From Erysipelotrichaceae bacterium (GTDB lineage Bacteria; Bacillota_I; Bacilli_A; RFN20; CAG-826), in NCBI GenBank assembly GCA_015059185.1, contig SVAY01000001.1, positions 3,252 through 67,251 on the forward strand: DNA of 64,000 bases, read 5' to 3'. The number at the start of each line of letters is the position of its first letter. Positions within the stretch are counted from its first letter, which is position 1. The notes under the pieces are model-generated. The model was not told the DNA's origin, did no database searches, and worked only from the letters and a program-made list of their open reading frames with translations. Below are positions 15,497 through 16,076 of the stretch, piece after piece. A program made the position numbers and the translations under genes.

Positions 15497-16076
15497 TAAT
15501 TACTGTAATAGTATAACTCCATCCATCATGTTTTGCACAATCTCACCTAACGATAATATGTCGTAGTTCGAAGCGTTTGCGAGCGGGCGGTTAAGAAGGG
15601 AAGAGTAATAAAAAAGATCTAATGGTTAGTTAGGCCTTGGTTATTGGATAGAGAGTTTTGTGCAAAATAAGATAAGTGAATTTAGCTAATTACATTTGTA
15701 ATAGTCTAACTCCATCCATCATGTTTTGCACAATCTCGCCTAACGATATTATGTCGTAGTTCGAAGCTTTTGCGAGCGGGCGAATTCAGCTTTTCTTTTG
15801 TTGTTAGGAAACGTGGCGTGTGGACGACGAAAGCTTGGACGGCAGGCATTTGCTTGAGCTGGTCGGTTCGGTGCGTTAGGAGTAGCTTTATATTATATAT
15901 AAGTATATGTAGGAAGCTGTAGGTGGCAGGCGTAGTCGTAAGCTGGAGTGATTTAGCTGGGGGCGGGCGGTTAAGAAGGGAAGAGTAATAAAAAAGATCT
16001 AAGGGTTAGTTAGATCATAGTTATTGGATAGAGAGTTTTGTGCAATATAAGATAAGTGAGTTTAGCTAATTACAAC
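15497..16076. repeat. Tandem duplication of a roughly 195-bp structured element (A1-B1, A2-B2), with the second copy split by a 180-bp GC-rich insertion
   Basis: A1 15497-15590 is about 90% identical to A2 15688-15781. B1 15585-15693 is about 93% identical to B2 15961-16076. Each A-B unit carries a long-range inverted repeat (ttttgcacaa ... ttgtgcaaaa). The insert 15782-15960 is GC-rich and flanked by GGGCG direct repeats. Confidence 0.8.

Follow-up and report, generated by a model that had tools for sequence, protein, structure and literature searches.

Two gene-less units downstream of rlmD in an Erysipelotrichaceae genome are probable miniature derivatives of a Tn7-like transposon

We analyzed a stretch of 64,000 nucleotides (here, the window; all positions refer to it unless a locus is named) from contig SVAY01000001.1 of an Erysipelotrichaceae bacterium. 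The interval between the rlmD gene and an open reading frame (ORF) encoding 414 amino acids (15486-16078; both flanking genes lie on the minus strand) contains two related units, which are very probably non-autonomous, gene-less miniature derivatives of a Tn7-like transposon, arranged head to tail at the attachment site of their family after the rlmD stop codon. The evidence consists of (i) homology of the units to the end regions of transposons encoding TnsB, TniB, and TniQ, (ii) their position and orientation at rlmD, (iii) a 5-bp target duplication around the second unit, and (iv) a window without tns genes. A tblastn search of the 64-kb window found no TnsB, TniB, TniQ, or TnsA-like match, and the mini-elements are therefore classed as non-autonomous. 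Nor were tns genes found at the mini-element loci.

Tandem units at the rlmD attachment site

Unit 1 spans 15504-15694 (191 bp) and unit 2 spans 15697-16074 (378 bp), with two nucleotides (TT) between them. A preliminary description of this DNA had proposed an A-B unit duplicated at about 90% identity, and this holds with slightly shifted coordinates: a repeat finder paired the A parts (15504-15589 and 15697-15782) at 95% identity and the B parts (15578-15694 and 15958-16074) at 92%. Diagnostic 21- to 24-mers were observed twice in the 64-kb window, against 0 to 0.01 expected by chance. The search for further unit copies found no third one in the window, and relatives in other genomes and metagenomes. 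Each unit also has the long-range inverted repeat described earlier, with imperfect 37-nt arms (15504-15540 and 15658-15694 in unit 1) that are 70% complementary (26/37); owing to the tandem layout, the same arms make a palindrome across the unit junction. Both units start with TGTAAT and end with ATTACA and thus have the TGT...ACA termini of Tn7-like elements. Neither contains a conserved ORF. A tiny upstream ORF (MMDGVILLQ and a stop) does exist on the minus strand, as first described, but it lacks conservation: many copies have TTG or CTG in place of the first ATG, and the stop falls within the variable flank. Being short and non-coding, with terminal inverted repeats and, for copy 2 only, a target duplication, the units fit the sequence-level definition of MITEs (miniature transposable elements bounded by inverted repeats). 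The two copies and their target are as follows (related loci carry L numbers).

15504..15694, minus strand: mini-element copy 1, with the same ends as copy 2, the 187-bp spacer deleted, and farther from rlmD
15697..16074, minus strand: mini-element copy 2, a complete type-1 unit, 88-96% identical part by part to the units of L026, L032, and L035
15692..15696, no strand: left copy of the target duplication ACATT, whose first 3 nt are the ACA terminus of copy 1
16075..16079, no strand: right copy of ACATT, overlapping the rlmD stop codon (16079-16081, minus strand) by one base
16075..16141, minus strand: attachment site, the rlmD 3' end encoding VDMFPMTAHVETVVGLYLKK and the stop; His codon at 16117-16115, 43 nt before the terminus

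A 5/5 match of the duplicated sequence has a chance of about 0.0015 given the base composition of the window. Because ACATT flanks unit 2 exactly, the 378-bp unit must have been inserted as a unit. Removal of unit 2 together with one ACATT restores AAATAAA/TGTAAT, the same junction that L007 has at the usual spacing of 40 nt. The left ACATT takes in the ACA terminus of copy 1, and the empty site is identical to the L007 junction; copy 1 was therefore the earlier insertion, and unit 2 arrived later, 3 bp closer to rlmD. The identity between the two window copies (95% in A, 93% in B) does not exceed that to copies in other genomes (96-98% in A, 95-96% in B), which speaks for separate insertions rather than a local duplication.

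The neighboring gene (16079-17416, minus strand) encodes an rlmD/RumA-type methyltransferase (PF05958, E = 1.5e-23). A six-frame motif search placed the transposon terminus 39-45 nt past the conserved His codon of the RlmD motif ..DMFP.T.HVETV.. in ten loci (the window, L007, L026, L032, L035, L039, L040/L041, L047, and L049), always with the B end proximal. In L049, the element adjoining rlmD encodes a TnsA-like protein, TnsB, and a truncated TniB. The position of the rlmD stop codon varies, and the TGTAAT terminus itself supplies the stop in L026, L032, and L039. Other family members lie 11-14 nt past tRNA-Ala(CGC) (L045 and L051) or past a tRNA 3' end (L052). Insertion is accordingly site- and orientation-specific downstream of a conserved gene, the arrangement known from the Tn7 paradigm, in which a selector guides orientation-specific insertion downstream of such a gene (PMC8649781). 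A TniQ-type protein may recognize the conserved coding end of rlmD and direct insertion about 40 nt downstream. The main text of two surveys of the superfamily (PMC8649781 and PMC10293859) does not mention rlmD as an attachment site.

Homology to full-length elements and the origin of the units

One scan of a genome collection and one scan of metagenomes with patterns derived from A yielded 15 real relatives (L007, L026, and L032 to L044). In total, 20 copies of A were collected over 16 contigs from metagenomes and metagenome-assembled genomes. They are 81 nt long and 90-100% identical, whereas the RlmD proteins of these loci share only 49-75% identity. Their boundaries are exact and their outer flanks are of about 18 unrelated kinds, A ending at the same ACA in these approximately 18 contexts. 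The genes flanking the units vary as well (the 414-aa protein, HTH-DUF3791, Fic, an ATPase, a P-loop protein, tnsA, and others). Between A and B lies variable content: a non-coding segment, a GNAT gene (L040, L041, and L042), or genes for peptides with a GG leader (L026). A BLAST search of the intergenic region against plasmids and phages gave no match, and pattern scans of viral contigs gave none. The parts of the window units are listed below.

15697..15777, minus strand: A2, the 81-nt module of copy 2 (TGTAAT...GCGAGC), with sharp boundaries
15706-15722, plus-strand reading: inverted TnsB-site-like motif of A2, ATAACTCCATCCATCAT
15748-15753 and 15770-15775, minus strand: promoter-like block of A2, a -10 CATAAT and a -35 TCGCAA, respectively, with a 16-nt spacer
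15783..15969, minus strand: spacer of copy 2 (187 bp), C 36% and G 12% on the minus strand
15970..16074, minus strand: B2, the right-end segment, with the TGT terminus at 16074
15990..16016, minus strand: hairpin GATCTAA-N7-TTAGATC (15996-16016) and then T6 (15990-15995), just inside the right end
16022-16038 and 16047-16063, minus strand: TnsB-site-like direct repeats of B2, AAACTCTCTATCCAATA and AAACTCACTTATCTTAT, respectively; motifs read by eye
15504..15584, minus strand: A1, the module of copy 1, with its outward end 19 nt from the first ATG (15485) of the 414-aa ORF
15590..15694, minus strand: B1, right-end segment of copy 1, sharing 93% identity with B2 and 95% with that of L032
15610..15636, minus strand: hairpin and T-run of copy 1, degraded (-1.8 kcal/mol)

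Read along the minus strand, copy 2 thus runs from the TGTAAT right terminus through the TnsB-site-like repeats, the hairpin with its T-run, the C-rich spacer, and the promoter-like block to an inverted TnsB-site-like end, ATTACA. It shares homology with the terminus-to-tnsA region of L052, L046, L045, and L047. The link to a transposase came from L044, where 107 nt separate the outer end of A from a 114-aa ORF and the next protein, of 583 aa, is similar to TnsB of Escherichia coli Tn7 (PDB 7pik; E = 2.4e-32). A protein search returned hundreds of homologues. L047 and L048 (TnsB 95% identical) have the same order as L044, with the spacer, A, 107 nt, the tnsA-like gene, and TnsB. Compared with the window A, the A module upstream of tnsA shows 96% identity in L047, 91-93% in L044, and 93-97% in L048 (over the 30 nt visible).

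Diverged relatives, with TnsB identities of 77-78% (L046, L049, and L050), 70% (L045), 64% (L052), and 61% (L051), keep this colinear order from the TGT terminus to tnsA. Their shared order comprises the terminus, two direct repeats of the CCATCC/TTATCC type, a hairpin with an AGATCT stem and a T-run, and a C-rich/G-poor stretch with an AT-rich palindromic core. Then follow an A-like block (..GCTCGC..16 nt..CATAAT/TATGAT..TTTTGT.CAAA.. and an inverted CCATCC-type motif), a small ORF, and TnsB. L051 lacks the hairpin and T-run and has small ORFs there instead. Intact members continue with TniB, TniQ, and a resolvase; L045, L051, L052, and L053 encode TnsB and all three of these. Full-length right ends start with TGTAATTATC (L052), TGTGACGAGCC (L046 and L049), and TGTAGTTGCCC (L045). 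The L052 right end, which begins TGTAATTATCTAAAC, is 93% identical to B and the hairpin over 44 nt. The units therefore have, in A (against L047) and in B (against L052), ends homologous to those of an element encoding TnsB, TniB, and TniQ. Furthermore, the alignment crosses the A boundary into tnsA-proximal sequence in the L044 and L046 lineages, and module A thus belongs natively to the interior of the right-end region. Thus, the window minus strand reads as a Tn7-like right-end region cut exactly at an internal inverted copy of its terminus. The family hosts are uncultured Bacilli/Erysipelotrichaceae.

Another candidate placement, in which A is the right end of the L044 TnsB element itself, was rejected on orientation; the alignment of L046 and L045 places A inside the right-end region. 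The decayed rlmD-associated transposons L044 (2457-10547) and L046 and L049 (4553-12243) carry a type III-like restriction-modification pair (N6_N4_Mtase and ResIII) and an 838-aa protein with a Sigma70_r4 domain as cargo.

The individual parts of the right-end region are suggestive of function. Two direct motifs in B (AAACTCACTTATCTTAT and AAACTCTCTATCCAATA) and one inverted motif in A (ATAACTCCATCCATCAT) resemble TnsB sites, with matches in L045, L046, L052, and L038, as judged by eye; equivalent repeats in full-length elements are CCAAATCCATCCATCCAAA and CTAAAATCATTCATCCAAC in L046 and two more in L045. TnsB may bind to these putative sites. The hairpin of copy 2 folds at -5.6 kcal/mol (z = -5.0) and is kept together with its T-run in L052 (identical), L046, and L045. 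It has the appearance of a weak intrinsic terminator, and its location just inside the end would be suitable for stopping transcripts that run on from the host gene. A consensus terminator scan missed it because the stem has too few G-C pairs. The TCGC..-16-CATAAT/TATGAT geometry of A is likewise kept in L052, L046, and L045. The promoter-like block stands beside the inverted transposase-site-like motif, and with this arrangement module A may be an autoregulated tnsA promoter and operator. The predicted promoter of A1 would now face the 414-aa gene from 19 nt.

We propose a parent family with genes for a small TnsA-like protein, TnsB, TniB, TniQ, and a resolvase, of which each unit represents the right-end region, i.e., the terminus with two direct repeats (B), the hairpin and T-run, the spacer, and module A. 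Module A, as an inverted copy of the terminus, would serve as a surrogate left end, and a short B...A segment could for this reason be moved in trans by a resident transposase. Copy 1 would have inserted first and would later have lost its 187-bp spacer by deletion between GCGGGCG repeats, and copy 2 would then have inserted between rlmD and copy 1.

There are several points that weigh against this proposal. (i) The TnsB sites were assigned as repeated motifs judged by eye, and consensus promoter scans do not flag the proposed tnsA-facing promoter. (ii) Full-length left ends were not found in the DNA examined of L045, L049, L051, and L052, so that the role of A as a left end is putative. (iii) The assignment as TnsA-like is weak, with a PF08722 match (E = 0.0024) in a single homologue, and the rlmD-associated tnsB elements (L046, L049, and L050) have a truncated TniB and no TniQ, the candidate rlmD selector. 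(iv) Target immunity of the Tn7 type should disfavor a second insertion beside copy 1 (PMC11014353). (v) Searches for a 5-bp duplication around copy 1 and around the units of L026, L032, L035, L039, and L040 found none. Because of this last point, decay in situ may contribute, and some units may be in situ deletion remnants.

Extended to both window units, such decay would mean that they are full-length transposons that lost their tns genes and cargo up to module A in place and were never mobilized as units. Module A is indeed native to the full-length right-end region, deletions between short repeats are frequent in this transposon family, copy 1 and most units elsewhere have no recognizable 5-bp duplication, and decayed Tn7-like insertions at attachment sites are documented (PMC11014353). 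Nevertheless, we consider this origin unlikely, because the perfect duplication around copy 2, in which the terminus of copy 1 is contained, calls for the 378-bp unit itself to have been inserted. The constant A boundary in its many contexts also speaks for mobilization of A...B units, as does the existence of units carrying cargo, among them the A-GNAT units of L040, L041, and L042 with different left flanks.

The GC-rich spacer and explanations by RNA or cassettes

In the preliminary description, copy 2 was interrupted by a GC-rich insertion flanked by GGGCG repeats that looked like a target-site duplication. Our analysis reverses this order of events. The GC-rich segment was found in at least 9 other loci and in full-length elements and is therefore ancestral; as a consequence, copy 1 is a deletion derivative, and copy 2 is not the victim of an insertion. 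A 7-nt repeat, GCGGGCG, bounds the spacer (15776-15782 and 15963-15969), and what had been taken for a target-site duplication is the microhomology of the deletion in copy 1, the real duplication being the ACATT around the whole of unit 2. The MITE-like reading of the preliminary description thus holds for the category of mobile DNA but not for an insertion into a structured RNA, as the whole A...B unit is the miniature element.

The order A-spacer-B recurs in six loci, with 88-95% identity in L026, L032, and L035 and with a shortened spacer in L036, L039, and L043, where the shortening consists of deletions between the direct repeat of the spacer itself. In the window, this repeat (GGCAGGC..AGCTGG, the repeated words that had been reported) lies at 15841-15862 and 15925-15946, and an AT-rich palindromic core lies near 15886-15906. 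A longer spacer of about 430 nt is present in L007, L033, and L038, and the longer form also occurs upstream of tnsA in L044/L047. No conserved frame was found in the spacer. Its GC content, earlier given as about 50% in a genome of about 30%, is about 45-50% in a window of 35%. The GC skew of +0.3 to +0.6 is the most extreme G-over-C skew in the 64-kb window. On the tnsA strand, C makes up 28-38% and G 8-16% in nine family members, including the full-length L045, L046, and L052, while the sequence diverges.

This composition bears on the suggestion that the segment encodes, on the plus strand, a GGA-rich small RNA that would act as a protein (CsrA) sponge or another trans-acting RNA. The skew is strong, a promoter-like match on the plus strand (TTTGCA-16-TATTAT) is present in A2, and the hairpin stem tolerates plus-strand G-U pairs in many copies. 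However, the GGA motifs follow from C depletion, being the complement of a C-rich/G-poor strand that is common to the whole transposon family, and the predicted fold puts none of them in hairpin loops. The plus-strand promoter is not conserved in L052, L046, and L045, and no plus-strand terminator was found. Moreover, the segment is dispensable in mini-elements: copy 1 lacks it, L036, L039, and L043 have it in shortened form, and genes stand in its place in L040 and L026. A small RNA of this kind is thus very improbable. A role of the spacer as a guide RNA was also dropped, since complementarity to the attachment site reached 12 nt in none of five loci except for one low-complexity T-run.

The preliminary description further inferred a conserved RNA fold and, as one possibility, a tandem riboswitch-like leader controlling the downstream 414-aa gene. 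The units are intergenic and upstream of a gene, and the long-range complementarity and the inner helix sequences (CCTAAC/GTTAGG) are present as described. In the hairpin alignment, 83% of the cells are paired, and two pairs are changed on both sides. This compensatory signal is confined to an 8-bp hairpin. The minimum free energy of either unit on either strand is no better than that of dinucleotide shuffles (z of -0.2 to -1.4). Each of the complementary arms retains its sequence throughout the copies, and the mismatches are the same in all of them. Rfam at permissive thresholds gave no match in the region and nothing relevant in the whole window and seven related loci. In addition, the downstream gene differs at nearly every locus, and the sequence is homologous to transposon ends. 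Taken together, there is hardly any room for a riboswitch.

Integron-like or other site-specific recombination cassettes were considered as well, in which the palindrome of a B end and an A start would be an attC- or dif-like site. Each unit junction has a 37-nt imperfect palindrome, GCCTAAC and GTTAGGC agree with the attC core consensus, units occur in arrays whose cargo varies, and duplicated rlmD 3' ends point to island accretion of the recombinase type at the same locus. Yet the cargo lies inside the inverted repeats rather than between palindromes, no integrase or Xer-type gene was seen beside any array, the ends are homologous to Tn7-like TGT/ACA ends, and copy 2 has a 5-bp duplication. 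Core-like heptamers are thus present without the ORF-attC-intI arrangement of integrons, and we regard cassettes as extremely unlikely; miniature Tn7-like elements remain our preferred reading.

What the spacer does in those elements is a matter for speculation. With its terminator-like hairpin and AT-rich palindromic core, the C-rich/G-poor stretch keeps its composition, but not its sequence, from the terminus to tnsA throughout the clade, and it might conceivably be a functional module, either a Rho-loading insulator or a non-coding RNA that regulates transposition. An insulator would block read-through from the host gene (rlmD or a tRNA) into the transposase operon. Related to this, and equally tentative, mini-elements consisting only of such modules might persist by benefiting the host, in that TnsB sites and an outward promoter could confer target immunity against autonomous elements or expression of the adjacent gene.

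Comparison with known elements and the surroundings of rlmD

The Tn7/Tn5053 superfamily (TnsB/TniA, TnsC/TniB, and TnsD/TniQ) has been surveyed (PMC8649781 and PMC10293859). The units share with Tn7-like transposons the TGT...ACA termini, subterminal repeated motifs that by eye look like transposase sites, the 5-bp target duplication, orientation-specific insertion at a fixed short distance past a conserved gene or tRNA with the right end proximal, and relatives that encode TnsB, TniB, and TniQ; as in Tn5053, a resolvase gene lies beside the core genes of these relatives. They differ in that the window copies are devoid of genes, have as their "left end" an inverted site internal to the leader upstream of tnsA, and are attached at the 3' end of rlmD, and in that the TnsA-like protein has only about 114 aa. 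Like laboratory mini-Tn7 and mini-Tn6022 donors and natural tandem or remnant Tn7-like insertions (PMC11014353), they show how ends alone can be enough for mobilization in trans and how ends and remnants accumulate at one site. At attachment sites of Tn7-like elements, ends in tandem and decayed remnants have been described (PMC11014353). The window units differ in being natural, only 191-378 bp long, and wholly right-end sequence, and in that the second insertion lies 3 bp from the first despite the expected target immunity.

Miniature derivatives of Tn3 (TIMEs) are known too (PMC4133298). MITEs and TIMEs are likewise short and non-coding, with inverted repeats derived from a parent, target duplication, mobilization in trans, and cargo capture (PMC4133298). 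The Tn7-like parent makes the window units site-specific rather than dispersed; their repeats are long, imperfect (26/37), and asymmetric, and their copy number is so far low. With riboswitches and other structured 5' leaders, the units share an intergenic position, apparent long-range helices, and a GC content above the surroundings, but they have no family match and no constant regulated gene, and thermodynamic or covariation support comes from one small hairpin only.

A natural mini-element that consists solely of right-end leader sequence and whose left end is an inverted site from the interior appears to be new, as do the rlmD attachment site, the insertion adjacent to a resident copy, and the compositionally conserved leader. 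Our findings remove a false lead for a new structured RNA and provide a concrete case in which Tn7-like transposons can yield gene-less miniatures from right-end sequence alone, with an internal inverted transposase site as the surrogate left end. They also point to the 3' end of rlmD (rumA type) as an attachment site for a Tn7-like clade of gut and rumen Bacilli, offer a natural example in which a second element inserted 3 bp from a resident one, and flag the C-rich leader for a possible part in transposase insulation or regulation. For annotation, the units explain contig breaks beside rlmD and may give terminators and promoters to flanking host genes.

Several loci carry genes within or beside the units. 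In L026 (361-654 and 1029-1316) and L036 (2178-2440), genes of 95-97 aa encode peptides in which a helical leader with a terminal GG is joined to a C-terminal domain bearing two CxxC pairs. These peptides are Cys-rich, their similarity to Nif11 leaders is weak and below threshold, and in L026 each gene is flanked by an A module and a variant right end; the genes are candidates for bacteriocin-like cargo carried by mini-elements. The GNAT cargo gene of L040 (6860-7320; also in L041 and L042) starts 6 nt past a TATAAT box without a Shine-Dalgarno sequence, which fits a leaderless mRNA. Within the B segment beside rlmD in L026 (2034-2745), there is an IS200-type tnpA gene (155 aa, Y1 transposase-like by eye) with about 60% GC against about 35% in the host. 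L007 has at 2395-2500 a short GC-rich stretch, CTGGCAGATATTAGCCCTCTATTACTAGCCGCCCTCATCAAGGGCGATATGCGGGCCACCGC, in AT-rich surroundings beside a second partial spacer copy, without an Rfam or tRNA match.

The 414-aa ORF (14241-15485, minus strand) has no Pfam or NCBIfam match. A gene caller on an identical contig (L001) starts it 7 codons later, which places the start 19-40 nt from the outward end of A1, and its expression may depend on the element. Farther downstream, at 13306-13345 (minus strand), a displaced second rlmD 3' end (HVETIVGLYLK and a stop) lies between a YoaP-GNAT gene and an HTH-DUF3791 gene; its alignment with the real end beat 2000 of 2000 shuffles. The segment 13346-16078 (the GNAT gene, the 414-aa gene, and both mini-elements) has the look of an island acquired at the end of rlmD through recombination with duplication of about 40 nt, a process distinct from Tn7-type insertion. 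A second remnant at 15429-15439, which would have made the pair of units an island of the recombinase type, was rejected, as the alignment was not significant (p = 0.14).

Remnants of rlmD 3' ends similar to that of the window occur in L032, L034, L040, and L041. In L041, a segment of about 1.6 kb (600-2340) with two minus-strand ORFs (Fic-like and GNAT-like by eye) lies between the intact rlmD and an rlmD 3' remnant that still adjoins the A-GNAT-B unit, with no integrase visible. The distal end of this segment (TTGTAGTATTGACA followed by CAT) matches the end of the older island in L040. Elsewhere in the window, a flavin mononucleotide riboswitch (333-449, minus strand; 81 bits) and the small signal recognition particle RNA (29569-29664, minus strand; 58 bits) are the only Rfam families above threshold.

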